From Ginglymostoma cirratum (lineage: Eukaryota), in contig JAHRHZ010000085.1 in assembly GCA_024137785.1 (NCBI GenBank), forward strand, positions 9,613,548 to 9,677,547: 64,000 nt of DNA, read 5' to 3'. Of this stretch, positions 1,245 to 61,200 are shown in pieces. The stretch's first letter is position 1. Each line of letters begins with the position of its first letter. The notes below the pieces were generated by a model. It did no database searches and was not told the origin of the DNA. It worked only from the letters and a program-made list of their open reading frames with translations. The position numbers and the translations under genes were made by a program.

Positions 1245-1562
1245 TTGTTTAACATCCAGGTTCCAAGTTCGATTCCAGCTTTGGGTCTCTCTGTGCGGAC
1301 TATGCACATTCTTCCCGTCTGTACGTGGGTTTCCTTTCGGTGTTCCGATTTCCTTCCATCGTCCAAAGATATGCAGGTTAGGTGGATTGGTTGTGATAAG
1401 TTGGCCATAGTGTTAAGGGATATGCAGGCTAGGTGGGTTAGCCAGGGTTTATGCGGGCTTACAGGGATATGGTAGGGGGTAGGACTGAGTGGGATGCTCT
1501 TCAGAGGGTTGGTGTGGTCTTGCTTGGCTGAATGGCCTGTTTCCACACTGTAGGGATTCTAT
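1245..1562 (+). mobile_element. SINE (tRNA/CORE-like head with CR1-like tail, shark HE1-type); related copies at 12790-13120 and 52260-52500
   Basis: B-box-like GTTCGATTCC, shared body GATATGCAGGTTAGGTGGATTGG, tail GAATGGCCTGTTTCCACACTGTAGGGATTCTAT. Confidence 0.7.
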
Positions 1563-2326: not shown

Positions 2327-2369
2327 ATGAATTTTCGCTGTCTGATTCTACTTGAAGTTATTCTTACAG
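2327..2369 (+). CDS. A1 exon 1, signal peptide MNFRCLILLEVILT
   Basis: ATG at 2327, hydrophobic core, phase-1 donor CAG|GTACTT; conserved at 53259-53313. Confidence 0.8.
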
Positions 2370-23369: not shown

Positions 23370-24031
23370 GATAAAAGGTACTGCAGATGCTGGAGAATCC
23401 GAGATAACAAGCATGGGGCTGGATGAACACAGCAGGTCAAGCAGCATCATAGGAGCAGGAAAACTTGACGTTTCGGGCCTAAACCCTTCATCAGAACCCT
23501 TTCTGATGAAGGGTTTAGGCCCGAAACGTCAANNNNNNNNNNNNNNNNNNNNNNNNNNNNNNNNNNNNNNNNNNNNNNNNNNNNNNNNNNNNNNNNNNNN
23601 NNNNNNNNNNNNNNNNNNNNNNNNNNNNNNNNNNNNNNNNNNNNNNNNNNNNNNNNNNNNNNNNNNNNNNNNNNNNNNNNNNNNNNNNNNNNNNNNNNNN
23701 NNNNNNNNNNNNNNNNNNNNNNNNNNNNNNNNNNNNNNNNNNNNNNNNNNNNNNNNNNNNNNNNNNNNNNNNNNNNNNNNNNNNNNNNNNNNNNNNNNNN
23801 NNNNNNNNNNNNNNNNNNNNNNNNNNNNNNNNNNNNNNNNNNNNNNNNNNNNNNNNNNNNNNNNNNNNNNNNNNNNNNNNNNNNNNNNNNNNNNNNNNNN
23901 NNNNNNNNNNNNNNNNNNNNNNNNNNNNNNNNCCCTTTCTGATGAAGGGTTTAGGCCCGAAACGTCAAGTTTTCCTGCTCCTATGACGCTGCTTGACCTG
24001 CTGTGTTCATCCAGCCCCATGCTTGTTATCT
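23370..24031. mobile_element. Inverted pair/array of Penelope terminal repeats with hammerhead motifs (23467-23494 -, 23503-23530 +, 23939-23966 +), flanking an N gap
   Basis: Same ~130-nt repeat as 37340-37432, in both orientations. Confidence 0.8.
23533..23932. other. Assembly gap (400 N)
   Basis: Run of n. Confidence 1.
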
Positions 24032-24581
24032 TGCATTTTTTGGTTGTTTCGCTTTCATTGCGTTCACCAGGAACTATTTTCACTTTGCTTTTCAAACCGT
24101 GACGCGAAGATTGCGTAAAAATTAGTTTTTGTAATCATCAAATTCTGAAAGAATAATTGGGGGTACTTAGGACATCAATAACACATTAAAGAGTAAGAAT
24201 TGTCGTACAATAGCAATGACATAAACGGTTTCTTGTGGGGTATGTGCATTGGAAATTCGGTAAATCGGAAATACACACCTCGAGTATGAGGTGTCCTAGG
24301 AATTCTGGTGTAAATGGCTAACTTTTATAAATGTACCTTTTTTTTAACCATCTGTGATATTCATCGTCCAACTGCAATTCTTTCAAGAGAATAGAAATAT
24401 CCAGTGTATGATACTGCACATATGGTCATTAGTTATGATTATACTGCCAAACCTAATGAAATAGCGATCAGAAAATATCTTGTTATTTCGAGATATTTCA
24501 ATGTCACGCTCTCACCTACCGTGCACAAATAAATAGGATCTGGTTCCCTTTATTTGACCTATTCCTTGACAAATCATTGCA

Positions 24582-27500: not shown

Positions 27501-29652
27501 ACAAATTGTTATGATGAAATTGTTGCAACAGGTCACTATGTTGCAAGAGACTGGATGTTTCAAATATCAGCAGTTGGTTTCAAGCTTTTTTAGGACATGC
27601 AAATGCTTTACCGAGGTTGAAGCTCTTTCATCATTAACATTATAAGCAGGATATGACATTAAAAATGAATAACACCTGTGTTGACATTTCAATGAAATGT
27701 GGCCTTTAGATGTGTGATTGAAGTGTCATGCAGGAGTCTTCTGATTTACACGGTAGTTGCCGTGCTATAGAGCTTCTTATGGCACAGTATTACAATCAAA
27801 ACAGTATTTAAAGCAGACACATAAATTCTCTCGGGATAATTTGACCCAAATCATCATGGTCAATTAGATCCATTGCCAAGCAATTTCTCTTTACCAAGCT
27901 ACGTTACCAGAAACATCTGATATCCTGCAGAAGGGACAGAAGGACAAAAAAATACGAGAGAAAATGAAAAAGTTGTAGATTGAGCAAAGTGCTCTGCTGA
28001 CACCATTGTTTCTCATGGTGAAATATTATAATACTTTCCCTTGCCTCTGAATGCAAAGGTATTGGCATGAATAAGCTGGTCATCGATATCCAGGGCAGTG
28101 AAGTAACTGCACACATTTTGTCAATGCATTAACATTGTCTAGGACTAGGGAGTCTGCAGGTCACCGTCCTATAATGTTCATAGGTCTGCATGCAATATGG
28201 CTTCTCATTAAAAGGGCTCAAATTGGTGGGTCCTACAGAACCTTCTCTCACAGATCAGTAAACGTACCCACCTCCTCCAGATGTGTTTGTTGCCATTGCG
28301 CTTCACATTGCACACATTGGAATTCCAACAGGATGGAAGGTGTCCATGACCAACCTGGACCAATGGCTTCCAGATTCCATCTGGATGTTTGTGAGCTTCT
28401 GGAACATCTGGATTCTCTTCCTGATCGCCCATGTCGTGAACCCCATAGGCTTTACACCTCCACAGGAAACAAACGAACCCATCTTCATGACCATGCACTT
28501 TTTTTTGCCTACTTTCTGTCCCTTGTCTATGGCATGCTCATAGCCAGGCCCCTCACTCTCCACCTCTCTCCTCTACACGCCAGTATGATCCTGACTGAGG
28601 GAACTAAACCCTCCTCCCATATCACTGCTTTTCCAGCTGTCCTTTGCCCTATCCCGTGGACTAAACGCTGTGGAACCACTGGACTGTCTATGACCCAGTC
28701 CCTGCATTGCAGACCCTGACCAACACCACGCTAACCAAACACCTGACCTTTCCTGGATGCTTGAAATCGAAGGGTGCCCTTCTTTAGCTACTCTGGGCTG
28801 CTGTGATTGGTAGGTACTTCCATGGACTATGCGGAGGACTCCTCCCTTAAAACTTTGAGACATGTCTGCCTGCTGGCTGCACATGATGTGTGTGATGGTC
28901 AAGAAACTGCTGGCCCATCCTGCAGGTGTGAGATTGATGTACCACATTGCACGTTTCAGGTTTTATGCCACATTGACCACGAACTGTTCACCTGTAGTGT
29001 TAGCTGCATGGTTCTGAGAGTACAGTAAAAGGCAAGGCATAACATGCATGCAGTCAGCTTGCAGGCAGGGTCTGATTGAAAGCACGTGATGAGAGCATTC
29101 AAGCAGACCTGAGAGGCAGCCTCTCTCTTCACGGAAGGTGTGTTTCTAGCAGACTTTCAATACAAATCGCTGGAGTTCTTAAAACCAACTAAATAAAGAT
29201 TAATAGAATATTAGAATGATAGGTACTAGTTAGCTATTTAATATGCTACTCTAAAGCGTTATTTGCGGAGAGCTGAGATTGTACAGGCTTGGTGTTCAAC
29301 TTGCAAAAAAGTACGATCACTACGCGTACGAGAAATATCTTCTGCATTGACATTTTTATGGCTTGTTATTTCTTGCTTGTGCGTAGATATTTTCCGTTAC
29401 TTCCTTTTGTTTTCCGATCTGCAGCTCAAGTATATTCTGTGCCTCCGTCACAGAAACAGTCAACGCTGGCATAGTATGAATCATCTTGTTACTGATTGCA
29501 ATTTGTAGGACCTGTAAAGAAAGTATTTGAAATATTGTCATTTGGTCTTTATCTAAACTTTCTACAAAGTGGTCAGGACACGAAAATAAAGTTTAAGATA
29601 TCATATGGCTAATGTCCAAAGAAGCAAATGCCCTCACTGGCCTACAGAATCT
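24582..29652 (-). repeat. Inverted segmental duplicate of ~57890-63003 (downstream flank of an A4-type gene)
   Basis: Collinear reverse-complement matches throughout, e.g. 24582-24670 with 62913-63003, 25170-25220 with 62450-62505, 27290-27330 with 60170-60205. Confidence 0.85.
29356..29511 (-). pseudogene. Gene fragment A3: orphan terminal cytoplasmic exon
   Basis: TTTACAG acceptor, VLQIAISNKM..ELQIGKQKEVTENIYAQARNNKP*; homologous to 58043-58200 and 6714-6890; upstream exons are absent beyond ~29650. Confidence 0.75.
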
Positions 29653-31109: not shown

Positions 31110-33454
31110 ATGTGGTTCAACTGCTCATTGCTGTTTTCTTATTGGTCGATTGTTGCCTGCACTGCAGGTGAGGAACTATGGAAGTTGGTGTGGTGATCAC
31201 AGCTACTTAGGTTCAGATTGTACTCCTGAGGTGCGAACCTACAGTCTAGCTGTGGCCACCTCCAATTCAGGAAATATTCAGGACCATCCAGTTGGGGCAG
31301 AATGTAACTGTGCCTAATTTTATGGTGGCACTGGACGCAAAATGTAGTCTGGGGCTAAAGGAGGAAAACTGAAGAGTTTAATGCTTGACGTTTCATGGAT
31401 ACGTGGTATTTCATGCTTTACTCAGTCTTGCTGGAGTCGCAAAACGATTTAAGGCTAATAATTTATTAGGACATGTGTCATTCACAAAGCTAGGGAGAGG
31501 AAAATGCTGATCCAACGACGGAATAGTTCTGATAATAACAGATACCATGTTAAGTGCAGTATCACATCATTAATCTCGGTCTTGAAACACAGCTGAACAA
31601 ATGAAGGAGATGGGAAGGAGATCTCGTCAGAAAAGGCAAAGGAACAGATATTTTGATGTGAAAAGGAAGAGAATGATGAAGAGAAGCAGAAGCCAAGTTT
31701 AGCTTACATTTCCCCCCACAAACTTATAAGGAACGGAAAGCCTTGATACAATGATGCAATTATGGGCCATTAAATGGTTTTACAATAAATGGCATGTATA
31801 TTCTAGAGATCCATCAAATTTTTGAGAAGTCCCTTTAAGCGTTCTGAGAGATTCTCCATTACATCCATTTTCTGTATTTGTTTCGCGACTGATTTGTATC
31901 CCCTTAGTTATCCCATAACAGCCAGTGACCCCACAATTTCCACTCTTTTTGCCTTGTTCACATTGCTTGCATCTCATATAGTTCTGCTTCCTTATCAATG
32001 TAACATAGACAGCCTTTTCAGTGCCTCGTTGTTAACAATTTTAAATACCTTAAACGCACGAAATATTTACCCTTTCGCCATGAGCAGGCAGCACTCGGCT
32101 CATGCGAAGCGTCTCAATTTCTAAATGTGCTTTTTGGACCCTAATCGGCCACAATCCATTTCTCATCAGCTCCTTAGTCCGTAAATGCCAGGATAAGCTT
32201 TTTGGAATGCCTTTTCACCTCTCAAACTCTCTCTTTTAGCTTCTTCAATCTACCTTCAAAATTCCCATTCGATTCTATATTGACCTGGTTCTTAGTTCAG
32301 TTATCCACCTGACTTCAGTTGCACGTATAGGTTTCCTACTTCATCTTATTTTATTGCTTGGTCTGGCTGTTGAACGAAAAGTGTGAGCCAAGGATGAACA
32401 GCAACATCTTATTGTCTCGCGTTCTGAACTTCTCTGCATTGTTTGACATGGTCAACCAAACGGTTATTCGTCAAAGCTTCTGTGTTGCTCCCCAAACTGG
32501 CTGCGCTGATTTAACGTATCAGGAATCTAAACCGAACTCGTAAGTGTTGAGAAATTTGACATTTGAAATGTCATATATTTCTCTTTATGTTGACAACACG
32601 TGTCGTTCAACGGTGGAGGCAATGCAAAGATTAGATTCTTAGGCCTATGAAATGAAGCCTATTTGCAGAAACCCCAATTACAGGAAAACAAAGGTCACAG
32701 CCTCAGAAGTGATGGAAATCTAACCGGAAGTTATCCTTCAACTTTACAGTCTCGCAGTTAATGTTGACCGGTATCAATTAAATTCATTGTTCAGAACGAA
32801 AAGCGAGTATGGTTTTCCGAGGTAATAGGAACTGCAGATGCTGGAGAATCTGACATAACAAGGTGTAGAGCTGGATGAACACAGCAGGCCAAACAGCGTC
32901 AGAGGAGCAGGAAGGCTGACGTTTCGGGCCTAGACCCTTCTTCAGAAATTTTCCGATGGGTTTTCCGATGCTTGATTCTCAGGGATATTATTTAAACAGT
33001 AACTACCTCTTTGATCATCACCAGGGCTATCTCAACTAATTGTACATTTATTTAACTATATATAATGTCACAATGTAACATCGTTTCCCCCTCTTCGATT
33101 TGCATGTTACTTCCAGTACAATTAAGTTCTCTATGACCCTGTTTTCTGGCAGCCGAAGAGCACGTTTATTTTTCAGAGTTGCTCAAAAGCCTCAAGAAGC
33201 TTTTGTGTCATGAAAGAAGAATATCTCTTTGATCTGCTTCTTTTCTGCATCTGGGGTGAATTCCTCGATAAAAGTGCATTGGTGGAAACAGGTGAGAATT
33301 AATTCCTACTCCCTTGCACGGATAGCAGAAAGCAATTTGATGTCAGCCATAACGGGAGCACTTTCCTGTGCTTGGTGCAGGTGAATGTTAAAAACTGTGA
33401 CTTCACTACTGCACGGTATTCTGACAAGGATCGGATCACACTGACGTGCATATG
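31110..33454 (+). pseudogene. Divergent family member: leader exon 31110-31167 (MWFNCSLLFSYWSIVACTA) and decayed V exon ~33153-33454
   Basis: Phase-1 donor CAG|GTGAGG. V remnant reads VAQKPQEAFVS*KKNISLICFFSASGVNSSIKVHWWKQ..SRKQF..HYCTVF with stops and frameshifts; not in the ORF track. Confidence 0.7.
32822..32948 (-). mobile_element. Penelope-terminus-like short repeat with hammerhead motif (32918-32945)
   Basis: Reverse complement reads CTGAAGAAGGGTCTAGGCCCGAAACGTC followed by the family tail. Confidence 0.7.
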
Positions 33455-35777
33455 CTAAGTAAAAAAACACCTGAAAGTGGAACAGTTAAAAATATCAAAC
33501 TTGTAGCAATTGAGACGCTTGGCACGAGACGAGAGCTGCCCTGCTCATGGCTAAGTTGTAAATATTTCGTGCGTTTAAGGTATCTGTTGTTTTGTTGTTT
33601 AAGGTGTTGCGTTGTTTTGTCATTCGAATGCTGGAGAATCTCAGCAGATCTGGTCGCATGTAGTGATAGAAATAGGGTTAATGGAGCACTGACGAAAAGT
33701 CATACCGGACTCAAACGGTTGATTCTATTTCTTTCCGCAGATGCCGCCAGTATTATTGAGTCCCTCCTGCGTTATCTGTGTTTATTTCAGATTTCCAGCA
33801 CTCACAGTACTTTGTTTTTCTTTTGTGATTGTTATGATGCACCTTTTCAGTTAGTTTAAGCATGATTACCAGCACATTTTCGGATGAATTATACTCTCAT
33901 CTTGCTTGGTGTAACCGCAGACAACCTCGCCACGCTCAGAGTATTACAAAACAAGTGAATTTTAATCAGATTGATCAGAACTCCAAACATAATGTACTTA
34001 TTTTGTACATTATGTGTTATGCGCCAGAGTGAGGAAGTTCTGCAGAAATTACAAATATGTAGCCCCTGACTGAAAGTCAGATATAATAACAGGCCTCTCC
34101 CAGCACATAGACAGGTTTTAGTCCATTGTTATGCTGGATGTAACCCCATCACTATCATAATATAAAACAAAGAACTGTGAATGCTGGAACATGAAGCAAA
34201 AACAGGCATTACTGTAGAAACTCAACAGGTCCGGCAGTATCGGTGTAGACAAAACCGAATTAATGTTTCGAGTCTCGTGATACTTGTGCCGAATTGATAG
34301 TAGCCAGGAAAATGCAATTGTCGCCGCCGCTGCTGAAACCACCGCCTCCATCACCGAAACCAACACCGTCATCGCGGTTGCCGCCGCCGACGCCGCTCCG
34401 CCCACCGCCCACCGCCTACGTCGCTCCGCCCACCGCCGAAGCCGACACAACACCCACCGCTGACGTAACTCCGCACACAGCCGACGCCGCCAACGCTCCG
34501 CCCACAACCTCCACAGCCAGCAGCTCCAGAGGAGACAGCAACACTGAGCCCTGCCGGGACTTCACCAACCCCCCAGACCTCCACCTCACTGAGGACGAAC
34601 GGTCAGTCCTCAGTAAAGGGCTCACCTTTGTCCCCCTCCACACACATATCAACGAATACCGCTCACGCTTGGATATTGAGCAGTTTTTCCGCCGCCTCCG
34701 CCTCCACGCTTACTTCTCTAACCGCGAATCTAACCCTCCCTCTACTGACCCCTTCTCCCGCCTCCAACACAAGCCCTCCTCCTGGACACCACCCCAAGGC
34801 CTCCTACCCTCCCTCGACCTCTTCATTTCCAACTGCCGTCGAGACATCAATCGCCTTAACCCCTCTACCCCTCTCACCAACTTCAACCTCTCCCCTGCAG
34901 AACGTGCAGCCCTCCGCTCCCTCCGCTCCAATCCCAACCTCACCACAAAACCCGCGGACAAGGGAGGCGCAGTCATAGTATGGCGTACTGACCTCTACAT
35001 TGCTGAGGCCAGGCGCCAACTCTCTGACATCTCCTCCGACCGCCCCCTGGATCATGACCCCACCCCCGAGCACCAAACCATCATCCACAACCTCATCACC
35101 TCAGGTGACCTCCCACCCACCGCCTCCAACCTCATCGTTCCCCAACCCCGCACCGCCCGCTTCTATCTCCTCCCCAAAATCCACAAACCTGAATGCCCTG
35201 GTCGACCCATTGTCTCCGCCTGCTCCTGCCCCACCGAACTCATCTCCACCTACCTAGACTCCATTTTCACCCCCTTGGTCCAGGAACTCCCTACCTACGT
35301 CCGTGACACCACCCACACCCTCTACCTCCTCCAGAAATTCCAATTCCCAGGTCCCCAACACCTCATTTTTACAATGGACGTCCAGTCCCTATATACCTGT
35401 ATTCCCCATGCTGATGGCCTAAAGGCCCTCCGCTTCTTCCTGTCCCGCAGAACGGACCAATCCCCCTCCACCGACACCCTCATCCGCCTAGCCGAACTCG
35501 TCCTCACCCTCAACAACTTTTCTTTCAATTCCTCCCACTTCCTACAAACAAAGGGTGTGGCCATGGGTACCCGCATGGGTCCAAGCTATGCCTGCCTCTT
35601 TGTAGGTTATGTGGAACAATCCCTCTTCCGTACCTACACTGGCCCTAAACCCCACCTCTTCCTCCGTTACATTGATGACTGCATCGGCGCCGCCTCGTGC
35701 TCCCACGAGGAGCTCGAACAGTTCATCCAATTCACCAACACCTTCCACCCCAACCTGAAGTTCACCTGGACCATCTC

Positions 35778-35877
35778 NNNNNNNNNNNNNNNNNNNNNNN
35801 NNNNNNNNNNNNNNNNNNNNNNNNNNNNNNNNNNNNNNNNNNNNNNNNNNNNNNNNNNNNNNNNNNNNNNNNNNNNN
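35778..35877. other. Assembly gap (100 N) with ~200 nt duplicated on either side
   Basis: 35575-35777 is repeated at 35878-36080 with a few substitutions. Confidence 0.95.
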
Positions 35878-37340
35878 ATGGGCCCAAGCTATGCCTGCCT
35901 CTTTGTAGGTTATGTGGAACAATCCCTCTTCCGCACCTACACTGGCCCTAAACCCCACCTCTTCCTCCGTTACATTGATGACTGCATCGGCACCGCCTCG
36001 TGCTCCCACAAGGAGCTCGAACAGTTCATTCAATTCACCAACACTTTCCACCCCAACTTGAAGTTCACCTGGACCATCTCCAACACTTCTCTCTCCTTCC
36101 TGGACCTCTCTGTCTCCATCTCGGGCAACCACCTAGAGACAGATGTCCATTTCAAGCCCACTGACTCCCACAGCTACCTGGAATACACCTCCTCCCACCC
36201 ACCCTCCTGCAAAAATGCCATCCCCTATTCCCAATTCCTTCGCCTCCGCCGCATCTGCTCCCAGGATGAGACATTCCAATCCCGCACATCTCAAATGTCC
36301 TCATTCTTCAAGGACCGCAACTTAACCCCCACAGTGGTTGAGAACGCCCTCGACCGTGTGTCCCGCATTTCCCGGAACACATCCCTCATGCCCCGTCCCC
36401 GCAACAATAACCAAAAAAGAATCCCCCTCGTCCTCACATACCACCCCACCAACCTACGGATCCAACGCATCATCCTCCGACACTTCCGCCATCTGCAGTC
36501 AGACCCCACCACCAAAGACATCTTTCCCTCCCCACCCTTATCTGCCTTCCGGAGGGACCACTCCCTCCTCGACTCCCTTGTCCGCTCCACACTCCCCTCC
36601 AGCCCCACCACACCCGGCACTTGTCCTTGTAACCGCAGGAAGTGCTACACCTGCCCCCACACCTCCTCCCTCACCCCAATCCCAGGCCCCAAGAAGACTT
36701 TCCACATCAGGCAGAGGTTCACCTGCACATCTGCCAATGTGGTATACTGCATCCGCTGTACCCGTTGTGGCCTCCTCCACATCGGGGAAACCAAGCGGAG
36801 GCTTGGGGATCGCTTTGCAGAACACCTGCGCTCAGTTCGCAACAAACAACTGCACCTCCCAGTCGCGAACCATTTCAACTCCCCCTCCCATTCCTCAGAT
36901 GACATGTCCATCCTTGGCCTCCTACAATGCCACAGTGATGCCACCTGAAGGCTGCAGGAACAGCAAATCATATTCAACCTGGGAACCCTGCAGCCCAATG
37001 GCATCAATGTGGATTTCACAAGCTTCAAAATCTCCCCTCCCCCAACCGCATCCCAAAACCAGCCCAGCTCATCTCCACCTCCCTAACCTGTTTTTCCTCT
37101 CACCCCAAGCCACACCCCCATCTCCTATCTACTAACATCATCCCGCCCCCTTGACCTGTCCATCCTCCCTGGACTGACCTATCTCCTCCCTACCCCCCTA
37201 CCTACACTCACCTTTACTGGCTCCATCCCCGCCTCTTCGACTTGTCTGCCTCCTCTCCACCTATCCTCTCCTCTATCCATCCTCTATCCGCCTCCCCCCT
37301 CTCCCTATTTATTTCAGAACCCTCTTCCCCTCCCCCATTT

Positions 37341-37368
37341 CTGATGAAGGGTTTAGGCCCGAAACGTC
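37341..37368 (+). ncRNA. Minimal type I hammerhead ribozyme motif in the Penelope terminal repeat
   Basis: CTGATGA-A-GGG-TTTAGG-CCC-GAAAC-GTC: conserved core boxes, 3-bp stem II, GUC cleavage triplet. Confidence 0.7.
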
Positions 37369-37759
37369 AAGTTTTCCTGCTCCTATGATGCTGCTTGACC
37401 TGCTGTGTTCATCCAGCCCCATGCTTGTTATCAAGGATAAACCCTACTGTGAAATTAGCCCTCAAGTATTACTCCGGGGAAGACCAACTGCCGAACAAAC
37501 CCTCGCTAGGGGTTGGGTGAAGGGAATAAAGGAACTGTGTAGACTGGCCAGCTGTGTATTCCTAGGTAATCCGTTTCGATGTCAGTGCGGTACTGAATTC
37601 ACACAGCGTGACTCGTGTGGTTTCTTTTAACTGTTTACAAGTTGTAGTTCGGAATATTTTGATATTTGGATATTTTTGATATTTGGTATTTTTTGGTACT
37701 TTTGAGAATACAAGAGTGAATTGTTTAAGGTAAAGTGTCCTGTGTACCTTCAAAAATTC

Positions 37760-46859: not shown

Positions 46860-47165
46860 CTGCCTCAGGGACCATATGTGTGACAGCAGCTGACGTCTTC
46901 AGTGAGGTATAAGAAACAACAGGTATATGTGGTGTTACTTCGGACAGGCTGCATCTCAAACATCATGCTTGAAACTTCATACAGCTCATCGTGGTTCTTC
47001 ACTTGAGTTGAATGTATTGCTGTTGTGTTTTCAATGCCATTTTTATACCAAGTGAGGGTGAGTTCCTACGAATAAAGTGAAGCTAGTTCACACGCGAGAA
47101 TTATAGACGCAGATGGATTCCTTTCGAATGGTCTCGAGACAATCCTCAGGAAGCTTAGGTCGTCG
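46860..47165 (-). pseudogene. Divergent C1 pseudo-exon (gene B)
   Basis: SIILACELASLYS*ELTLTWYKNGIENTTAIHSTQVKNHDELYEVSS..NTTYTC; in-frame TAG at 47066-47068 and a later frameshift. Confidence 0.85.
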
Positions 47166-47360: not shown

Positions 47361-49728
47361 GATAACAAGCATGGGGCTGGATCAAGCAGCATCATAGGAG
47401 CAGGAAAACTTGACGTTTCGGGCCTAAACCATTCATCAGAAATGGGGGAGGGGAAGAGGGTTCGGAAATAAATAGGGAGAGAGGGGGAGGCGGATAGAGG
47501 ATGGATAGAGGAGAGGATAGGTGGAGAGGAGGCAGACAAGTCGAAGAGGCGGGGATGGAGCCAGTAGAGGTGAGTGTAGGTAGGGGGGTAGGGAGGAGAT
47601 AGGTCAGTCCAGGGAGGATGGACAGGTCAAGGGGGTGGGATGATGTTAGTAGATAGGAGATGGGGGTGTGGCTTGGGGTGAGAGGAAAAACAGATTAGGG
47701 AGGTGGAGATGAGCTGGGCTGGTTTTGGGATGCGGTTGGGGGAGGGGAGATTTTGAAGCTTGTGAAATCCACATTGATGCCATTGGGCTGCAGGGTTCCC
47801 AGGTTGAATATGATTTGCTGTTCCTGCAGCCTTCAGGTGGCATCACGGTGGCATTGCAGGAGGCCAAGGATGGACATGTCATCTGAGGAATGGGAGGGGG
47901 AGTTGAAATGGTTCGCGACTGGGAGGTGCAGTTGTTTGTTGCGAACTGAGCGCAGGTGTTCTGCAAAGCGGTCCCCAAGCCTCCGCTTGGTTTCCCCGAT
48001 GTAGAGGAGGCCACAACGGGTACAGCGGATGCAGTATACCACATTGGCAGATGTGCAGGTGAACCTCTGCCTGATGTGGAAAGTCTTCTTGGGGCCTGGG
48101 ATTGGGGTGAGGGAGGAGGTGTGGGGGCAGGTGTAGCACTTCCTGCGGTTACAAGGAAAAGTGCCGGGTGTGGTGGGGCTGGAGGGGAGTGTGGAGCGGA
48201 CAAGAAAATCACGGAGGGAGTGGTCCCTCCGGAAGGCAGATAAGGGTGGGGAGGGAAAAATGTCTTTGGTGGTGGGGTCTGATTGCAGATGGCGGAAGTG
48301 TCGGAGGATGATGCATTGGATCCGTAGGTTGGTGGGGTTGTATGTGAGGACGAGGGGGATTTTTTTTGGTTATTGTTGCGGGGACAGGGCATGAGGGATG
48401 TGCTCCGGGAAATGCGGGAGACACGGTTGAGGGCGTTCTCGACCACTGTGGGCGGGAAGATGCGGTCCTTGAAGAATGAGGACATTTGAGATGTGTGGGA
48501 TTGGAATGTCTCATCCTGGGAGCAGATGCGGCAGAGGCGAAGGAATTGGGAATAGGGGATGGCATTTTTGCAGGAGGGTGGGTGGGAGGAGATGTATTCC
48601 AGGTCGCTGTGGGAGTCAGTGGGCTTGAAATGGACATCTGTCTCTAGGTGGTTACCCGAGATGGAGACAGAGAGGTCCAGGAAGGAGAGAGAAGTGTTGG
48701 AGATGGTCCAGGTGAACTTCAAGTTGGGGTGGAAAGTGTTGGTGAATTGGATGAACTGTTCAAGCTCCTCGTGGGAGCACAAGGCGGCACCAATGCAGTC
48801 ATCAATGTAACGGAGGAAGAGTTGGGGTTTCGGGCCAGTGTAGGTACGGAAGAGGGATTGTTCCACATAACCTACAAAGAGGCAGGCATAGCTTGGGCCC
48901 ATGCGGGTACCCATGGCCACCCCCTTTGTCTGTAGGAAGTGGGAGGAATTGAAAGAAAAGTTGTTGAGGGTGAGGACGAGTTCGGCTAGGCGGATGAGCG
49001 TGTCGTGGAGGGGGCTTGGCCCGTTCTGCGGGACAGGAAGAAGCGGAGGGCCTTTAGGCCATCAGTATGGGGAATACAGGTATATAGGGACTGGACGTCC
49101 ATAGTAAAAATGAGGTGTTGGGGACCTGGGAATTGGAAGTTCTGGAGGAGGTGGAGGGCGTGGGTGGTGTCACGGACTTAGGTAGGGAGTTCCTGGACCA
49201 AGGGGGTGAAAATGGAGTCTAGGTAGTTGGAGATGAGTTCGGTGCGGCAGGAGCAGGCGGAGACAATGGGTCGACCAGGGCATTCTGGTTTGTGGATTTT
49301 GGGGAGGAGATAGAAGCGGGCGGTGCGGGGTTGGGGAATGATGAGGTTGGAGGCGGTGGGTGGGAGGTCACCTGAGGTGATGAGGTTGTGGATGGTTTGG
49401 GAGATGATGGTTTGGTGCTCGGGGGTGGGGTCATGATCCAGGGGGCGGTAGGAGGAGGTGTCAGAGAGTTGGCGCCTGGCCTCAGCAATGTAGTGGTCAG
49501 TGCGCCATACTACGACTGCGCCTCCCTTGTCCGCGGGTTTTATGGTGAGGTTGGGATTGGAGCGGAGGGAGTGGAGGGCTGCACGTTCTGCGGGGGAGAG
49601 GTTGGAGTGTTTGAGAGGGGTAGAGAGGTTGAGGCGATTGATGTCTCGACGGCAGTTGGAGATGAAGAGGTCGAGGGAGGGTAGGAGGCCTTGGGGTGGT
49701 GTCCAGGAGGAGGGCTTGTGTTGGAGCT
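47361..49728 (-). mobile_element. Second, 5'-truncated and frameshifted copy of the same Penelope-like family
   Basis: Near-identical reverse complement of ~34760-37432; ORFs 47646..48920 and 47833..48042. Confidence 0.93.
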
Positions 49729-50065: not shown

Positions 50066-50927
50066 CTGATTAGGATATTGTGCGCTCCAGACAGTTTCTA
50101 TTCAATATTTTCAGACACGTTACCACACACATGTATGTGTGGTAGCTGTGCTTCCTGGCTCAGAGTTAGGGACAGTACTACTGCACTACTAGACCCATAC
50201 ATCATGTCCTCCATTACATCAATTCAAATTGGTTTCAATTTCCTTCACAGGTTCGTAATATAGATAATATTTCAAATAATTCAACCTCCAAAATGACAAC
50301 CTACCGTATTTGGAAGTAATGCTCATCACTGCCTCTCAAAAGGAAAACGTGTAGTTGATTGTGTGCTCAGCTTGCAACATGCTGGCGCATCTTGTTCTTC
50401 AATTTCACAATTACCTCGTCAGATATGTTGCACGTCTCCATCCGGCTTCCTTCGTACTGCTCTGTTTTCATCGTCTCTCATAAAACTCAAAATGACGTCA
50501 GTCAGAGGCACACGTTCTAGTGCGCACGTCTATGACAGTGGCAGTTAATATATCGCCCCTTTCTCAACCTGTAGCCCCGGGCATTTCAAGCTATCAAAGG
50601 TGTTTCAAAGCTTCTTCTGTGTTATCTAGCACAATCTGGTTACATTCATTGTCAGGCTGCGAAGCGCGGTCAGAACCTCCATTTCAGAGAGAAGTTTATT
50701 CTCCCAGAGAGTGTGAACCTGCGGAATTCTTAGTCGTAGAAGGCAGTTGAATGTTTTCATGAAGAGGTTAAATATAGTTCTTAGAGATAAAGAATTAGAA
50801 GGATGTGGGAAGAAAGCAAGAATAAGGTACAAAGCTGGATGATTAGCCAGAACCATTCTGAACGTTAGAGCAGGTTTGAGTGGCCAAATAGTCTACTCCT
50901 GCCACTATCTGGACCAGTCTGAGTTTC

Positions 50928-51550
50928 TGTTCTGGATCACAGCGTGCATCCAAGCGGTTCTTTTCAGACTCGGGTAAAATAACCAAGAGAAGGCTCAACA
51001 ACAGCAACTTGCTTAAATATGAATGTTTATTTAGTAATAATAGATTATAATGGCAATAGTAAATGATTATAGTGGTAATGATAAATGGAAAGAAAAAAAA
51101 AGGAAAAACAAAAAACAAGTCTCACGCCTTTCTAATAAAAGTAACAAGTCTCATGCTCGGCCTATCAGGGACCCCTCAATTGATGGCTGGTCTGGAAGCT
51201 TGTGTTCGTCCCTGGCACTATTCACGATTCCGAGCCGAAGCGAAGTGCAGCAGCAGCAGCAGCAGTAGCTCGGAACGAAACTCTCTCTCTCATACAATAT
51301 CACAAACAATCGGTGCTGATAACAAAAGATACAATAGACGAAACTGCTGGGTCTTATAGAAAAAAGTAAGTTTTTGGGTGTGTTGTCTGCAGCACGTACG
51401 GGAATGTTCACATGAATCATCCAAGGTCATACGGCTTGTTAATTGTTATTCTAAATTGCCTAGCCTACTTTCCTATCCTGTACAATATATTTTCTCATGC
51501 AGCTGTCGAACATCATCATTAACTTTCAGACCTTCGGCCTATCATATTCA
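50928..51550. mobile_element. Probable solo LTR (623 bp) containing a short (CAG)n run
   Basis: TG..CA ends, flanks GTTTC/ATTTC (5-bp duplication with one mismatch); absent from the paralogous site at ~361-366. Confidence 0.6.
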
Positions 51551-53479
51551 ATTTCCGAAAGGCAAATTATGATTTGCCTAAAGAATGGACAATCCTGATG
51601 AGGACCATACCGGTGTTGTGATACATGTGGACTTGCAAAACAATTTAATCGAGACTGACGAGGAAGGGCAGATAGCAATCCTACTGCGTGTAGAATCAAA
51701 TCAAAATTGCTGTACATGTAGCAATGATATAAATCAGAGAAAAGTGCGAGCAGACAACATCAAATTAAAGGAACAGTTTTACATTGAGTTCTCGAGTGGA
51801 GGGACCGGAGGTATTTGTGCACGGATTGGTGAAGGTGACAGTGTAGGTAGAGCAAATGATGAATAATTGTTCCTTAGTCCTTGGCCTTTATAAGTATAGT
51901 CATATTGCACAAAGGCAAGGGAATTCTGGTGCAGATTCACCAAACACGGCTGTATCGCGTACCTTTCTGGCCTTTGCACGTCAGGAACGGTTTGAATGCA
52001 TTTCAAAATAGAGCTGAAACAATATGTAAGAATGATACGAAGCATTCAATTTTATACATTTTGGAGGAAGATTGTAATTCCGACATCATGTTGCATTCAA
52101 AAGATAAATTTATAAGTGCGTTCATTGTCATTAAAAAAGTGGCAACCAACATACCTTACTAACATTTGCAAAGGGAAATCCGCCAAAAAAACAGGTAATC
52201 TGCGATTGTGTTGATTGAAGCATAAATATTGGCAAGAACGCCACCAGATTGGATATTTAATATCCAGATTCCAACTTCAATTCCAGCCTTGGGTGATAGT
52301 GTAGAGTTTGCACCTTCTCCCCGTGTCTGCGGGTGCTCCGATTTCTTCCCATCGTATAAGACGTGCATGCTAAGTGGATTGGCAATGCTAAATTGCCCAT
52401 AGTGTCCAAGGTTGTGCAGGCGAGGTGGGTTAGCCAGGGGATATGCAGAGGGTCGGTGAGACTTGGTGGGCCGAATGACCTGTTTCCACGCTTTAGGGAT
52501 TTTGTGATCCATGATCCATTCCAGCATGCAGAATGGCTTCCGTTTAATGTCACATTGGAAAGCCAGCACCTCTGCCACTGCAGTGCATCACATTACTGTC
52601 TGTCTTGGTTTGTGCTTTCATTCCTAGAATATTACTTGCACCTAGAAAATTCCAGCGCAGGAAGGAAATTCCAACTCGTGGAGAGATGGCTGACAAAAAA
52701 AACCAGCGTGTTTCCATGAATGCAGGAGGAAGTTTAGTGGAGAAACTCAGGCTATTTCCATTTAAGAAGAAGTTGAGATGAGATTTGATGCGCCTGTTCA
52801 TATCATGAGAGTCCTGAAGAAAATCAATAATGATCTATTGATCCCATTGGCGCAAGTTCCAACAACCCGAACCTCCGATTATGGTAAAAGTCAAAACAAA
52901 TGACAAGTGCCCAAAAATACGATTAAGATCTGAATTCACTGAGTAGGAGAGGAATGGAAACAGATCTACTCGTGTTTAGAATCAGTATGGACATTAGCAA
53001 TGTTAGTTAACTCTGCATTTGAAAATCAAATGCCTTTGCCGAATGTTCGCTTCCCGTGATACATGAGATTTCAGGAATGAAATAAACATAGAAACTGCAA
53101 AGTATCGTTGAACATATGAGGCTCCAATGACCAAATGTTCTCACAGAATGTTAAACGTCATCGGGATGTATCTCGTAGAACACAATTAGGAAACGAATCT
53201 TAGCAGTTACCAACTCGGAGTAACAGTACAGAGTCGTCAGTTGAATCCATTGCTCAGGATGTCAGCGAGGATCAATTTTCGCTGTCTGATTCTACTTGAA
53301 GTTATTCTTACAGGTACTTGCTTATTTAATTGACAGAACTGTTTTAGTTAATGAAAAGCTTCCGAAGCCATTCGTCATTCATTTAAAGAATCTTATTTCC
53401 TCTATCTGGTGAATTATTTAACTCTTCTATCTGTATGCTGTATATGACAGTTACCTGCGCTGTACTACGTTTCTAATAG

Positions 53480-53794
53480 CTGCAGACTGCACTTCGTTCA
53501 GTGTTACTCAAACGCCTAAAGAAGTAACTGTGAACAGACGGACGGACATTACTTTCTACTGCAAATTCACCATCTCTCCGCACAGTTCAAAGCCAGAAGT
53601 AATTTGGTGGAAGCAGATTGGAAATGAACATTTTCAGACGAGTGTAAGAAAACGATTTGGTTTTGGAAATGAAACGTCAGCTTTCTGTAACATTCTGAGC
53701 GTTACTGTGCAGGATTCTGGAGTTTATTACTGTGCAGTGATTTATCAAGGAATAGGTCAAATAAATGGAACCGGATCCCATTTATTTGCGCGCG
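53480..53794 (+). CDS. A4 V(J) exon, open reading frame
   Basis: ORF 53530..53802; 12 nt differences out of 315 from the A1 V exon; intact splice sites. Confidence 0.9.
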
Positions 53795-54825
53795 GTAAGT
53801 GAGAGTGTGATAATGCCGGAAATATTTCGAAATAACAAGACATTTTCCGATCGCTCATTTCAACAACATTGACGGTATTATCGTGGTTACTGGTCATTTG
53901 TGCAGTAGCCTACACAAGATATTTTTGCCCTCTGGAATGGTTGGCAATTAGATAATGAATATCACAGGGAGAAAACTGCAACATTTATAAATATTAGCCG
54001 TTTAGACTATAATTCCAAACACAACGTGTACACGAGGTGTATATTTCCGGTGGGTCGAATTTCCAATGCATATACCCGACGATAACCCGCTAATGTCAAT
54101 GCTTTTCCACTATGATTCTTAGTCTGCGTTGTATTCTTGTTGTCTTGACTACCCTCAATTGCTGTTTCTGGGGTTTGAGCGTCCAGAATTATATCTCACA
54201 TAATTGTTTCGTCATGGTTTGAAAAATCAGTGTGGAATTACTTCCTGATGAGCAGGATCAATCCAAATGAATTTCAATTTTGAAGCATAGCATGGATTAG
54301 AACCAGGGACCTCCAATAGATGTTTAAAACAAGACAAAGAATCTGTAGCTCTTGAAGTTCAATTTATTTAATACATTTCTTCATTAGTAATGCTTTGGTT
54401 TTGAAACTTGGCGAATGCAATGATCTTCATTTGAACAACAATCAGCAGCTTTATCGTCATTATACACTTGAGCTTAAAACACAAGAGCCGACAAAAATTA
54501 TTTCCTTTGTCCTTTCCCCTGCCATGGCTCAATTTAATTAATTCATTCAAATATACGAGCCACACATTGTTAAGCATTTCGTTGCTTTCTTCTGCTGTGG
54601 AAAATTAAGTATTGGACTTGATACTTCAAACAAAGGTGAAAAAATGCCACAGGTAGGAAAGTTTTATCTTCATTGCCTGGAAGCTTGTACGTAAAATTAG
54701 AAAGACAAGAAGCTGCGGTTTTGAATGCTGCAATATAACAAAGCAGAACGGCTGAAAATCATACTCAAATTTAATATTTTCCGATTTTGTCCAATAATTT
54801 GGCTTTGTTCATTCTCTTCATGCAG

Positions 54826-55145
54826 TTGCCCCACTTCCACTGAAAACTACGTCCAAGTTAGACGAAGAAAATTCACTTGCATCTTTGACCTTTCTGTGTG
54901 AAACATCTGCATTTTATCCGGAGGATTTCACCCTCGCCTGGTATAAAAACGGCGCCGAATCTACAGTCGGAATAAATACTAGTAAGGTGCAGAACAGTAA
55001 GGGACTGTATGAAGTAACCAGTCCTTGTTTGAGTCTCAACCTCCCTCAGACAATGCCAGATATACCTGTTCGGTATCTCACGTCTCTCTCAAGACTCCTG
55101 CTGTCGTCGTCCATAATATTTCCACATTTGCTGGAGTCCAAAAAG
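54826..55145 (+). pseudogene. A4 C1 exon, frameshifted
   Basis: LTFLCETSAFYPEDFTLAWYKNG..GLYEVTS, then out of frame; the second Cys (YTCSVSH) is in another frame; donor gcgagt. Confidence 0.85.
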
Positions 55146-56143
55146 GCGAGTTCGTCACTCTTCAGTATCATGTGCGCATATCATGGAGTTAGTCCGCGGT
55201 ATTTTCGTGCGAAATGCCATAATTTAATGCATTATATTAAGTTGTCATTTGTGTTGCAAAAGCAGCAAAACCTTATTGACAATCGAATATGAAATAGCAA
55301 TTTTGTTCAGAATTGAGCTTTCTGTCCGTTTCTTTCTTCCTATCATTTTGACTTTGTTCACTGTCTTTACTTCCGTGTACACAAAATGTTTCATCCCCGA
55401 CAAGTGTCTATTTTCCCTGTACTGTTGTCAGGAGCAACATTGTTTTGTTTGGTTTCAGCCTGCCTTTTACCACCGCATTCCCCGTTGGTTGTGTCCAGGT
55501 CGGATTTCTAAGACATCCCTTGTCAAATGTAATCTCTCACCCGTCCACGGCACGTTTAGTTGGGATTGAGTTCACATATTTCACAAAGTGTATGTGATAG
55601 CCTGACTTGCCGATGCCGCGTTAGATTTAATGAATTAGCAATTTGCTCACTTTGTCAATCGTTTGTCACAACACAAACAACAATTTATTACACCTAACCA
55701 GTAGATGCCATTTATAATACAATGACTATCATAAATACAGTTCGTTTATCTGCAAGGGGTTCGTGACCAATTGCCCCCATCCAGAATTTGATGTGGCCAG
55801 CAGAGAAAATGTGAAATCATCCCTGTAGATTCAAGGAAACACTGTTAATAAGTAAGAAAGTCCCAAGGAGAATCGACTCATCTTGTATTCCTACCTTTCT
55901 AAAAGTCCTTTGAGATCCACGAACTGAAAATCCATCCCAAAGTTTGATTTAGAACTTTCTATCTGTTGGAAAAGGAAGACTGTTCGATATACAACTGAAA
56001 TAGGCTGTGGCACTTCAACTTTTTCATTGCTCTTCAATCAAGCGGTGCAGCCGAAAACATCATCGTATTTTAAGCAAGAAACTACAGTGACCCTAATTTT
56101 TATTTAACGATCACGCGCAAGTAATATCCTCTTAATCCTGCAG

Positions 56144-56257
56144 AGAGTATCAACAATTCACTCGTCGTCTGGTCTTCAGTTCGTGAAGTGGTTGTTTCGG
56201 CGTTTCTTGTAATACTGGCCATAATTGGAACGCGTAACGCGCTTGAGCGTATCAAAA
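56144..56257 (+). CDS. A4 TM exon with Arg-Glu near the N-terminal edge of the membrane segment
   Basis: Same 114-nt length and splice sites as the A1 TM exon; open frame ESINNSLVVWSSVREVVVSAFLVILAIIGTRNALERIK. Confidence 0.8.
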
Positions 56258-58042
56258 GTAAGCTCTACTCTCAACTCCTGATTTTCTCACAAGGTCAACG
56301 TCGTTTGCCGTTTCTGGAAAACAAGCGGGATGCTGAGAAGGTGGCCTATTGGGGAGAAAGGTTCGTGGGAACTTGAGTGGGCCATTCAGGCCCTTCGAGC
56401 CTGTTCTGCAATTTAAAGAGATGATGGCTGATCCATGGCTTAACTCTATATTCATATTCCTAAATACCTTTGCTTAACAAAAATAAAGCGATCCCAGATA
56501 TAAAATTAAAATTAACATTTATTTGTTGAAAAATCTTCCAAACTTGTGTGTAGATGTGGTTCCTTACAACTTTCCTGAACGGTCTTCGAAAATTTTTAGA
56601 GTATACCCACCAGTTCTAGAATCTCCAGCCAGTGCAAATAGTGCATCTTATCCACACCGTCTTTTCCTATTAGCGTCTTGAAGACTTCAATCAGATCATC
56701 CCTTAGCCTTCTAAATTCGAGAGAAAACAGGCCTAACTTGTCGAATCTCTCCTTTGAATTAAATTCCTAGTGTCCAGTTATCATTCTTGTAATTGTACAA
56801 CGTACTCCCTCCAAGGCAAATGAATATTTCCTGCGGTATGTTGGTCAGATCTGTTCACAGTTGACGTAAATGTTATCAAACATAAGTATTGCTCACGTGT
56901 TCGTTTCGAAAAGCAAATTTCATTTTTCAACATGAGAAATGAAATGCACCCTGACAAACATGAAATAGGTAATTCGATCCTTCTGCCAAGTAATCGTTGC
57001 TCGTTGACAAGCTGGAGGATCAAAATCAGATATCGATCTTACAACCCTTTACCTCTGCTAGCAAAGTAATCAAAGTTGTTCTGCCTCAAAAGAACACTCT
57101 TACCCTTTTTCTATCACTTTGATTTAGAAAAGTGCAGGCTCATTTTCCGCATGGAAACCTAGTCAATATTTCCATCTCTCAATGCAATTATATTTCATTG
57201 GTTTGTAGATAAAGAAGAACACATAAGGCAATCAGAGTGCCACGACAATGTGGTAAGTTCAAACCTTCATCACACTAGGAATTTGAAATGTATGGGCCAA
57301 TTGCAATAATCGAAGAAATATATGCTAATATCGCCAGAACATTCTATGTCTTTTTATTGAAAAAAACTATTCATCCGGTATGTGTATGCGTCAAAACCAG
57401 GTTTGAAGTATAGTTTGTACAATTGTGTTACTGACAAAAGGCGGTGAATGGATCTTCCTGAAAAGAAGACTATTCATATCTTTGAGACTGTTTCTAGGTT
57501 GAGCCATTTTTTTTAGTTTTGAGAACAAATTTACTGTCTAACTTCACTGCCTTTTAACATTAACATGGTGTTCCAGCATGAATATGAGGAAGTTTGAATT
57601 GCTGAATTGAACACCGCGATTAATATTTGTTTTCATGCAAGTATATCTGTAATGTGGATTCTGTAAGGGATGTCGGGCCTTGGTTAAATTTGCTCACTGC
57701 TTTGATGAACAAACTGTTCAAGACAATGAAATGAACGCTTATTGAAGTGTTATAGTTCTTGTCCTCGCAGGAAGCCGCGGCTGACGTCTCAGCAAAGACA
57801 GGAGAACTCCAAGATGTACATTTGAAATAGTTAAAAGCATGTATGCTGAGGTAGGTAGGGGTAAGGGAACACAAAATCAGAATGAAATCGTGATTCTGGT
57901 TGTCAACAATGGCATTTGCTTCTATGGATATCAGCCAAATGATACTTTGAAGTTTTTTTTTCACGTCCTTCTGTTGATTACTTGGCAGAAAGTGTAGAAA
58001 AAGAGACCAGTTGTACAACATTTCCAAGTAGTGTCTTTACAG

Positions 58043-58200
58043 ATCTCACAAGTCGCAATCGGAAATAAGATGACCGTAAGCTACTTTAACGTTCACTGTT
58101 TCTGTGAAGGAGGCACAGATAATGCTTGAGCTGCAGACTGGAAAACAAAGCGAAGTAACAGAAGACATTTATCCACAAGAAAACAATAACAAGCCATTAA
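58043..58200 (+). pseudogene. A4 decayed terminal (ITIM/ITSM) exon, probably now 3' UTR
   Basis: TTTACAG acceptor; homology to 6714-6890 (ELQTGKQSEVTEDIYPQ) with indels disrupting the two upstream Tyr motifs. Confidence 0.7.
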
Positions 58201-61200
58201 AAATCGATGCAGGAGATTATTCTCAGACGTGGGCTGATCATGTTATTTTGCGTTTAGAACTTCAGGCCTGCACAATCTCAACTATGTGCGAATAAAGCAT
58301 TATAGCAATATATCAGATAACCGTTGTGAGTTCCTATCATTTTGATGCTCAGTTAATCCTTATTTAGTTGTTTTTAAGAACTCCAGCAACCTGTATTAAA
58401 AGTCTGTTGGAAGGATACGTTCTTGAAGAAACAGGCTGTCTTTCAGGGCCCCTCGCTTGCTCTCATTGCACGTTTTTAGTCATAGCCACCTGCATGCTGA
58501 CTGCATCCATGTCTTGCCTTGTTTTTTTTCTGCATTATCAGAGCCACACAGTGTTTCTTGCAGGTGAACAGTTCATAGTCAATGAGGTATACAACCTGCT
58601 ATACCAAAGCGATACATGATTTTCGCACCCGCACCATGTGCTAGCAGTTTATGTGCCAAACACACGTCATGCACCACCAACAGGCAGCCATGTCTCAAAG
58701 TCATAGAGGAGGAGACCTATATGACCCCCATGGCGGTACCTAACAATCAAAGTAGCCTGGGACAGCAAAGAACAGCAGTCTCCTATTCTAGTCCAAGCAT
58801 CTGGGAAAGGTCATGTGTTTGGTCAGCGTGGGGTTGGTCAGGAATTTCAGTCCAGGGACTGGATCATGGTCAGTCCAGCGCATTTAGTCCAGGACTAACC
58901 GCAAAGGACAGGTGAGAAAGTAATGACATTGGAGTAGTCCCCAGTCGGTATCATACTACCGTTTAGGTGTGAGAGGTGTGGAGTGAGAGATTTCTATATG
59001 GCCATGTCTGGTATGGTCATCGCTTATGGAAAGGACTAGGGTAGTGAGGTTAGAAATTGGACACATGCAAATTCATGAAGACGGGGTTGCCTGGGGACCT
59101 GTGGAGGTCTAAAGACTATGGAGTCACAAGACAGGCGGTCAGGAAGAGAATGCAGTTGTTCAGAGGTTCACAAACATCCAAATGGAATCTACAAGCTATT
59201 GGCTCAGATCGGCCGTTGACACTCATCACCTGGTGGAATACTAATGTGTACACAGTGAAATAAAATGGCAACAGACAAACCTGAAGGAAATTGGTGTGTT
59301 TATTGGTCAGTGCGGGAAGGGAGAGCAGATCCCACCCATTTGAGACCTTTCAGTTGGAAAACATATTGCATGCAGACTCATGATCTGCAAACCCCCTGAT
59401 TCCAGGCGATAATGATTTGACTATATGTGTATCGATGACTTTGTGCCAACACCTTTGCACTCAGAGGCAAGGGCAAGTATAGTAATGTTTCACCAAGGGA
59501 GATGATGGTGTCAGCAAAACCCTTTAGTAAATCTACAAACTTTTCATTTTCTCTCAATAGTTATTTTTTGTCTTTCTGTCCCTTCCACAACTTATCCGCG
59601 CTGTCCCTTGTAACATAACTGGATGGAGCATGCCTGTTCGGAAATGGATCACAGTGATGATGAAAATTTGGCTTGGGCAATCCTGAAAAAATTTATATCT
59701 GATATCAATGCCGTTTTCACTGTAGTTTTTGTATTTTGATTAGTTTAATAGCACTGTAACAGTCATTGTACAAATCATTTTACATTTTACATTGTAAAAA
59801 TCATTTCATTGAAATGCCAACACAGATGTTACTCATTTTTGAATACCACATCCCTGCTCATAATGCTAACGAAGAAAGAACTTAAACCCAAGTGAGGCAT
59901 TTGCATGTCCCAAAAGTTTTGAAACCATCTGATGATATTTGACACATCCACTCTCTTGTCACATCGTGATGTGTTGCAACAATTTCATCACAACATTTGT
60001 TATAAACAACACGAGGTCATTCTGTCTCAGCTATTCTTCACTGAATTACATTGCCTACTTAAATTTTTAAGTTTCTGCTGCAGGTGTTGATGTGACTATG
60101 CTGCCTCCTTCATGACTGGCAGAGTCTGTGTGAGCATTCAAATAATGATCATATAATTAGCAATACCGTTTGGAGGATAAATAATGGTCAGAGCTCAGAG
60201 GCAATTAAACTGCAATTAGATGCTTCCATGATGGATTTTTAAAAATATTCGTAACATTTTCTAATTTCTCTAATTGCATTTGATTCTCTGAGATCCATCC
60301 AAACTCACATCTATATAAATAACAGCACTTAATTTGGCCTTCACCATGCCGAATATTTTCTCTAGTGTCAACATTCCTCTCGTGTTGAACCATTTTCTAT
60401 GATTTAATTCTTCTGGAATCAATTGTTCCAATACACACCTAGCCGGACTTCCATATTCTTTCTTCTGTAAATTACAGATCAGACAAACATTTACTGTTAG
60501 TCGTTTAGCAAGTATGCTGCCAGCTAAGATACTTTGGCTCCCAATCAAAGGGAGTATAACTTTTACAATTCCCATCCTTGTTAAACAATCCCATGCAATT
60601 GTCTCTCCTCATCTCTCTGATTGTTCTAATACTGGTAACATCCAAAGATAGTGACAGGATCCACGTTACGAACTACATTCCTACATGTCTCTATACTTAA
60701 AGTTGCTTTCATCCTTTAAAGCATGTTTTATAAAGTATCTATTTTACCAAGTGTTTGGCAATGTATCCTTATACACAGTGATTCGTTCATTGCAATGCTT
60801 TATTTTATATTGTTCGCCTGAAGTGTCTTGGGAGGCTTAAACATAGGCTTGTCTTCAGATACTGCTTTCCCTCCACAGCTCTGAAAGCTCAGTTTGGTGT
60901 AATCAATTGCCTAGAGTTGGTCACGAAATAAAGAGCCTCTTCAAAGGGAAACAGATGTGCTACCACTAAGCCACAGTTGAGCACTTATCCTCCTTGTCGG
61001 ATAAAGGAATCGGTTCTTAAGGCGCTTTGGTCAATTCATTGAAATTGCAACAACACAAGTTCGCTCTAAAGTGCATACGTTTAATTTGTTGCCTTTCTTT
61101 TTTACCATTATGAAGGTGTACTCTTATCTTGTCAAAATAACCCATTGAGATAAAGAATCATCTATTATTAAAGCGATGAACTGTAGTGTATATTTGCAGC

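Follow-up and report, generated by a model that had tools for sequence, protein, structure and literature searches.

How two neighbouring receptor genes come to be nearly identical over their putative ligand-binding exon and the short intron before it, and strongly diverged over the exons for membrane and tail, is the question raised by this locus. The window, by which we mean the whole 64,000-nucleotide stretch analysed (G000:C85:9613548-9677547, part of a 4.36-Gb genome), contains two paralogues of the immunoglobulin family in direct orientation and 51 kb apart, A1 (1-7500) and A4 (50560-58900). An earlier note on this DNA had proposed that recent conversion or unequal crossover homogenised their leader, intron 1 and V exon. 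We propose that A1 and A4 form an inhibitory/activating pair in which repeated conversion rewrites the leader-intron 1-V segment, an explanation to which, taken as a whole, we give a probability of roughly 0.7. That gene conversion has taken place between the two genes we regard as close to certain, and that it serves paired signalling as probable.

Predicted signalling types of A1 and A4

Both genes have the exon order leader, V-set, C1-set, transmembrane (TM) and tail, all on the + strand. In A1, the leader coding exon (2327-2369), which uses the second of two ancestral ATGs, is followed by a V-set exon (2536-2850; PF07686, E 6e-11), a C1-set exon (3878-4198; PF07654, E 1e-11), a TM exon (5225-5338) whose hydrophobic stretch lacks a charged residue, and tail exons at 5872-5915, 6416-6517 and 6714-6857. 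The RNA-like run X14 matches A1 with zero mismatches over a 904-base contig that contains the leader-V, V-C1, C1-TM, TM-tail 1 and tail 1-tail 2 joints, and a loose end matches the last exon at 6714; V, C1 and TM are joined directly, leaving a single C1 domain. In translation the A1 tail carries four tyrosine motifs, two of them ITIM-consensus, one ITSM-like and a weaker one spanning a splice junction, by the consensus given in the accessible part of PMC5112662.

The A4 gene comprises a leader coding exon (53259-53313) that uses the first ancestral ATG, an open V-set exon (53480-53794) with 8 amino-acid differences from A1, a C1 exon (54826-55145), a TM exon (56144-56257) whose hydrophobic stretch contains an arginine close to its outer end, and tail exons at 57209-57252 and from 57771 to a stop at 57830, the splicing of leader and tail being modelled on A1. 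A 22-base deletion in tail exon 2 has removed the first tyrosine motif and ended the frame, so that the tail has about 44 residues and no tyrosine. On these features of the translated exons, A1 is a predicted inhibitory receptor and A4 a likely activating one. Run X14 was compared with A1 only, lacks A4 bases at the listed V sites and comes as contigs that drop variants, and so has no bearing on A4 expression; the run search for A4 listed no RNA runs.

The same two types recur among the paralogues found by searching 200 kb on each side of the window (positions here are window-relative). B1, about 190 kb downstream with its V at 194020, is of A1 type, with an uncharged TM and a tyrosine-motif tail, and loose ends of X14 match its TM and tail exon by eye. 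B2 (206516) and B0, whose sequence starts within C1 at 117771, directly behind a 10-N gap, are charged-TM paralogues, and a more distant intact-looking gene lies at 242538. The outer part of the TM holds an arginine in A4 and B0 and a lysine in B2; the A4 arginine precedes a glutamate, a feature in which B0 differs. Deletions of 22 (A4), 8 (B0) and 8 (B2) bases in tail exon 2 all remove the first motif and end the frame early. Among 30 homologues hand-picked from 162, eight combine an uncharged TM with at least two tyrosine motifs and six have an arginine in the apparent TM and a tail no longer than 41 residues, a count that leaves out five further homologues flagged as basic that have no credible TM. 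The genome also holds a zeta/FcR-gamma-family TM exon (PF11628) with the conserved aspartate (L047, G000:C32:158728-158814, - strand), a candidate for an FcR-gamma-like adaptor.

In this assembly a T run near 55024 lacks one base, which breaks the frame of the A4 C1 exon. A related species, organism A, carries the missing base in 4/4 runs, on a contig that is there partly merged with the A1 orthologue, and the break may stem from an error in the consensus, mark a null allele or have arisen recently. The leader, V, TM and tail frames of A4 are open. B2 has a stop in its TM exon, and with the A4 frameshift this marks the charged-TM lineage as prone to decay. A GC splice donor follows C1 in A4 (55146-55147), B0 and B1, where A1 has GT; two zebra shark gene models read through the GC donor and lose the TM.

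Several other repeats lie in the window. Inverted decayed fragments of the A1/A4 family occur at 21100-29632 (-), 33178-33366 (+) and 46919-47149 (-), and comprise one copy's V end and C1, an A4-type 3' flank, and broken V and C1 exons. The inverted copies at 34762-37432 (+) and 47361-49726 (-), 95-96% identical, belong to a reverse-transcriptase-bearing retroelement and were rejected as part of the tract; the element is also present in intron 3 of B0 and in the DNA upstream of A1 and of B1. A 203-base repeat (35575-35777 and 35878-36080, 96.6%) flanks a 100-N gap and is likely an unmerged contig overlap.

Identity profile and genealogy of A1 and A4

Differences counted by hand in the earlier note, 4/166 in intron 1, 12/315 in the V exon and 36/114 in the TM exon, were all reproduced exactly. 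The most similar tract takes in the leader end, intron 1, the V exon and the first 11 bases of intron 2 (2330-2861 in A1, 53274-53805 in A4) and has 16 differences in 532 aligned bases (97% identity); introns 2 and 3 differ at 191/1011 and 229/962 positions, and the difference rates of introns 1 and 2 are distinct at p=1.5e-9 (Fisher). The best low-divergence segment, 1797-2840, reaches a log-likelihood ratio of 67.5 against a permutation maximum of 9.3 (n=200). Segmentation of the pairwise alignment gives 81% (514-1796), 91% (1797-2330), 97.5% (2331-2840), 81% (2841-3840), 90% (3841-4196, the C1 exon) and 75.5% beyond, and a stiffer penalty reduces this to 81/94/80.

The tract had been described as sharp, with identity falling abruptly after the V donor site. 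This description holds for the 3' edge, where a change point at 2835-2845 (about 53789 in A4) leads through a short shoulder (2825-2899, 8 differences in 75 bases, about 89%) to 78%, but not for the 5' side, which is soft and stepped, from 97% to 91% within 2195-2419 and from 91% to 81% within 1702-1819. The intermediate step corresponds to an older conversion layer over the promoter and 5' block (1797-2329 in A1, 52741-53273 in A4; 48/529 differences), and the C1 exon forms a further raised block of older layer, absent from the earlier note (34/320 differences, 89%). Identity along the duplication is layered (81/91/97/81/89%) rather than uniform, and the raised blocks coincide with the exons V and C1 and with the promoter but spare the intervening intron 2. 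The region of raised identity is a stack of tracts of different ages and not the product of one event.

Two in-frame ATGs are present in B1, of which A1 retains just the second and A4 just the first; these sites (2315-2329, 53259-53273) lie at the 5' edge of the recent tract. A tract starting between the two ATGs could leave a copy without a start codon, which may help hold the edge near 2330.

The genealogy of the two genes changes along their length. For the quartet A1, A4, B1 and B2, informative sites favouring A1+A4, A1+B1 and A1+B2 number 7/0/0 in the leader, 11/0/0 in intron 1, 21/2/0 in V and 15/0/2 in C1, and, in the 3' half, 1/13/0 in TM, 9/46/3 in intron 4, 3/24/4 in intron 5 and 12/54/9 at the 3' end, with intron 3 mixed (11/14/5). 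From promoter to C1, A1 groups with A4; from TM to the 3' flank, A1 groups with B1 and A4 with B2, and bootstrap values for these groupings are 99-100. By AU tests, both alternatives to A1+A4 are rejected (p<0.01) for promoter, leader-intron 1-V, intron 2 and C1, and A1+A4 itself is rejected (p<0.001) in TM and in TM-to-3'; no topology is preferred in intron 3 (p 0.12-0.83), where the switch lies. Separate trees for V and for TM and tail, advised in the earlier note, are opposed for this quartet, as conversion expects.

A4 is 74% identical to B1 over the 3' half of intron 2 and 86% over C1, against 65% and 75% for B2, a member of its own TM lineage, and A4 has therefore received the older layers from the inhibitory lineage. 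The idea that A4 acts as a conversion donor thus fails for these layers, in which it is the recipient; for the recent tract the polarised sites are split, with 5 of the 16 differences derived in A1, 4 derived in A4 and 7 unpolarised. A genome-wide search scored 111 candidates, of which at least 52 match the V protein; these matches all lie in several clusters on contigs C84 and C85. The next-best matches after A1 and A4 are at 71-72% in protein and 76-77% in DNA, again as lower bounds, and these V searches found no third donor of the tract. The nearest named relatives of the V domain are in the carpet sharks Chiloscyllium punctatum (67%) and Stegostoma tigrinum (61%), which makes a carpet shark the likely source of the window.

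A related species and a second pair

Organism A is about 5% diverged from the window species (4.4-6.2% in flanking introns: 65/1056, 42/948 and 120/2402), and its short-read contigs (Logan), from 4 runs of 4 studies, were compared with A4. In 4/4 runs a single contig spans the tract at 53295-53804 (to 53779 in X8) and also matches A1 at 2351-2860, its 3' end at 53804 coinciding with the tract edge in the window. Separate contigs flank it, two upstream, with 27 and 14-15 differences from A4 and 21 and 29 from A1 (X1, X10), and distinct ones in intron 2. The depth of the tract contig is 1.78, 2.04, 1.85 and 2.36 times a single-copy baseline that was hand-picked from contig tables with repeat and C1 contigs left out; the ratio expected from the window's A1/A4 divergence is 1.41, or 1.56 if organism A's substitutions lay on one copy only. 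Near-identity of the copies in organism A is read from these depth ratios, since Logan contigs drop variants and may merge bubbles, and merging does occur, as shown by the C1 contig, which followed another path in X1 and X10.

The tract contig has 15-19 differences from A4 and 19 from A1. Eight listed sites set organism A apart from a base common to A1 and A4; six of them are derived in organism A, one in the window pair and one is unclear. Both organism A copies likely share new mutations, and exchange would therefore have followed the species split; homogenisation has likely recurred since then, as judged here and in zebra shark from contigs and gene models, not phased assemblies. Within the window species the recent tract is not very recent, its 16/532 differences nearly matching the distance between the two species in this stretch (17-19/510). 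Single-site hints of direction in organism A conflict, with an A1-derived base at 2551 and an A4-derived base at 2398 in X1 that is not found in X10. Organism A is also merged in part of the promoter (52782-52960; ratio 1.9-2.3 in three runs) and at C1 (54802-55049; ratio 1.2-1.6), with 1.01 predicted for each, and its tracts therefore differ from those of the window species.

B0 (117771-123200) and B1 (193100-198900; both window-relative on G000:C85) make up a second charged-TM/ITIM pair. One base differs between them over the last 155 bases of C1, and divergence begins 9 bases past the donor; the 5' half of B0 is lost in the 10-N gap, so that identity beside it could alone be an artefact, and B0 comparisons 5' of intron 3 are alignment noise. 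In zebra shark, the V domains of two RefSeq models of B0 type (P0005, P0152) are identical to that of a B1-type model (P0153) at 105/105 and 104/105 positions, the former two being assigned solely by a 15-residue intron read-through like that of B0 and the latter by its B1-type tail. Each of these V domains is 79-80% identical to that of B1 in the window species.

Explanations and known paired receptors

The inference of conversion is borne out by the opposite topologies of the 5' and 3' parts, by the lack of constraint on intron 1 in other paralogue pairs and by the short-read data of organism A. We propose that the TM and tail halves of A1 and A4 descend from two old lineages, and that their 5' halves have been made alike in layers. 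Misaligned direct-orientation copies 51 kb apart would swap tracts of a few hundred bases each, ending where identity drops. Old events would have replaced the whole 5' half of A4 with inhibitory-lineage sequence, later ones would have refreshed promoter and C1, and the latest the leader-intron 1-V segment. Selection would keep the binding domain and promoter of the activating copy matched to the inhibitory type, such that a ligand or microbe engaging A1 would set off signalling by A4 as well, by way of an FcR-gamma-like adaptor. A spliced-cDNA template was considered and rejected, as intron 1 and the promoter lie inside the tract.

Conversion could be real and A4 dead or null, its identity to A1 merely inviting more conversion and A4 serving at most as a reservoir of variants for A1. 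The A4 frameshift, the B2 stop and the several decayed paralogue fragments nearby fit such a course, SIGLEC16P, which converted SIGLEC11, is a precedent for a null reservoir in the available portion of PMC5701461, and self-reinforcement would also account for the similar edges in two species. We nonetheless consider this unlikely: the base present in all four runs of organism A makes the break recent, allelic or a T-run consensus error, the other A4 frames are open, and raised identity falls on exons and promoter and spares intron 2, with the same exon-edge pattern in B0/B1. One unequal crossover, a mechanism also named in the earlier note, that gave a chimeric A4 with the 5' half of an A1 duplicate and a charged-TM 3' half and no later exchange, would suit a single topology switch in intron 3 between genes in direct orientation. 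It is refuted as the sole cause because the 5' half is layered, as the disparity between introns 1 and 2 illustrates, and the tract has been renewed in organism A; we judge it very improbable, and it may explain the oldest layer only.

An assembly artefact, in which reads of A1 or of another allele were merged into A4, might be suspected from the N gaps in the region (2 in the window, 11 in 464 kb) and from same-species reads, among which A4's own V did not appear. However, the copies differ at 16 scattered sites and not at zero, and X14 matches A1 without a difference. In another species, independent contigs from short reads reproduce the shared tract, with the same 3' edge and separate flanks, and the tract is therefore not an assembly artefact, an explanation we find scarcely credible. 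Purifying selection on leader, intron 1 and V, for which one could cite the putative binding role of V and the shortness of intron 1, we regard as practically negligible. Constraint on intron 1 is excluded because the five other pairs among A1, A4, B1 and B2 are only 77-81% identical there (79-81% in V), which upholds the argument that protein selection does not explain the likeness of this intron; organism A, moreover, differs from A1 at 7 listed intron 1 sites, more than the 4 of A4. Repeated conversion within an inhibitory/activating pair thus remains our preferred explanation.

Our literature search, which covered the main texts of largely open-access papers, found no report of conversion in shark receptors of this kind. 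Conversion in inhibitory/activating pairs is known from primates and frogs; what is new is its occurrence in cartilaginous fish, in a merely auto-labelled family, with evidence from two species for the A1/A4 pair and from a second pair nearby. Converted V domains single out, among at least 52 V-like matches, members likely under ligand pressure, and in practical terms short-read assemblies collapse such tracts. A wider reading, which we offer tentatively and hold to be doubtful, would see in sharks an arms race as in mammals, with at least two on/off pairs (A1/A4, B1/B0) re-synchronised species by species at fixed exon edges under a pathogen or self ligand exploiting the inhibitory copy. On that view, pairing maintained by conversion would go back to ancestral jawed vertebrates, the family would be the counterpart of the SIRPs in sharks or their root, and the A4 frameshift would be a SIGLEC16P-like null allele.

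SIRPs resemble A1 and A4 in their V-set and C1-set ectodomain, ITIM-type tail and paired forms. Relatives in Mustelus, Scyliorhinus, Heterodontus, Heptranchias and Callorhinchus are auto-named SIRP-like (RefSeq 'tyrosine-protein phosphatase non-receptor type substrate 1-like'), others tapasin-related or MHC class II beta-like (word-index homologue search: one protein among 18 candidates). The V fold is a generic V-set whose structure matches V-NAR, TCR, Ig-beta, NCAM, NKp30 and PD-1 with tied scores, SIRP being absent among the structure matches listed, and the C1 search matches SIRP-gamma (E 4e-10) below immunoglobulins and MHC. NSFL1C is a neighbour gene of SIRP; SEP-domain genes lie on C87 and C52, not on C84 or C85. 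SIRPs are V-C1-C1 in the part of PMC12975943 at hand, whereas the A1/A4 family is V-C1 and does not show one V with two C1 domains; the origins of SIRPs remain unknown, according to the accessible text of a 2022 review (PMC9652883).

The predicted use of an adaptor by A4 follows the analogy of PIR-A, which has a TM arginine and a short tail and associates with FcR-gamma (PMC2192985, available in part), although PIR-A and PIR-B are of another domain type and family. In Xenopus ceacam pairs, as described in the available sections of PMC5112662, conversion concentrates, as in A1/A4, on the exon that binds the ligand and has an edge at a splice site, but it is confined to the N exon, between genes in opposite orientation and with an activating member that has its own ITAM-like tail; in A1/A4 it extends over intron 1, leader and promoter of two directly oriented genes, and the activating type combines a charged TM with a short tail. 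Also close to our case are primate SIGLEC11/16 and SIGLEC5/14, in which an inhibitory gene lies beside an activating one and the V-set exon and upstream region of the two have been homogenised per lineage; the tracts are fragmented and the activating copy has a null allele, by the portions of PMC5701461 and PMC4042635 available. The TM and tail anatomy of A1/A4 fits the likeness to Siglec-5/14 that the earlier note had drawn, and A1/A4 combine a near-identical membrane-distal domain, noncoding sites included, with a divergent TM and tail, as expected of paired receptors under concerted evolution. Siglecs differ in binding sialic acid, and Siglec-14 in using DAP12, whereas A1/A4 have a V and one C1 domain; A1 and A4 are also farther apart (51 kb, against about 9 kb for SIGLEC11/16) and have a lower background identity (about 80% against about 93%). 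As in SIGLEC14/5, the direct orientation of A1 and A4 predicts fusion/deletion alleles.
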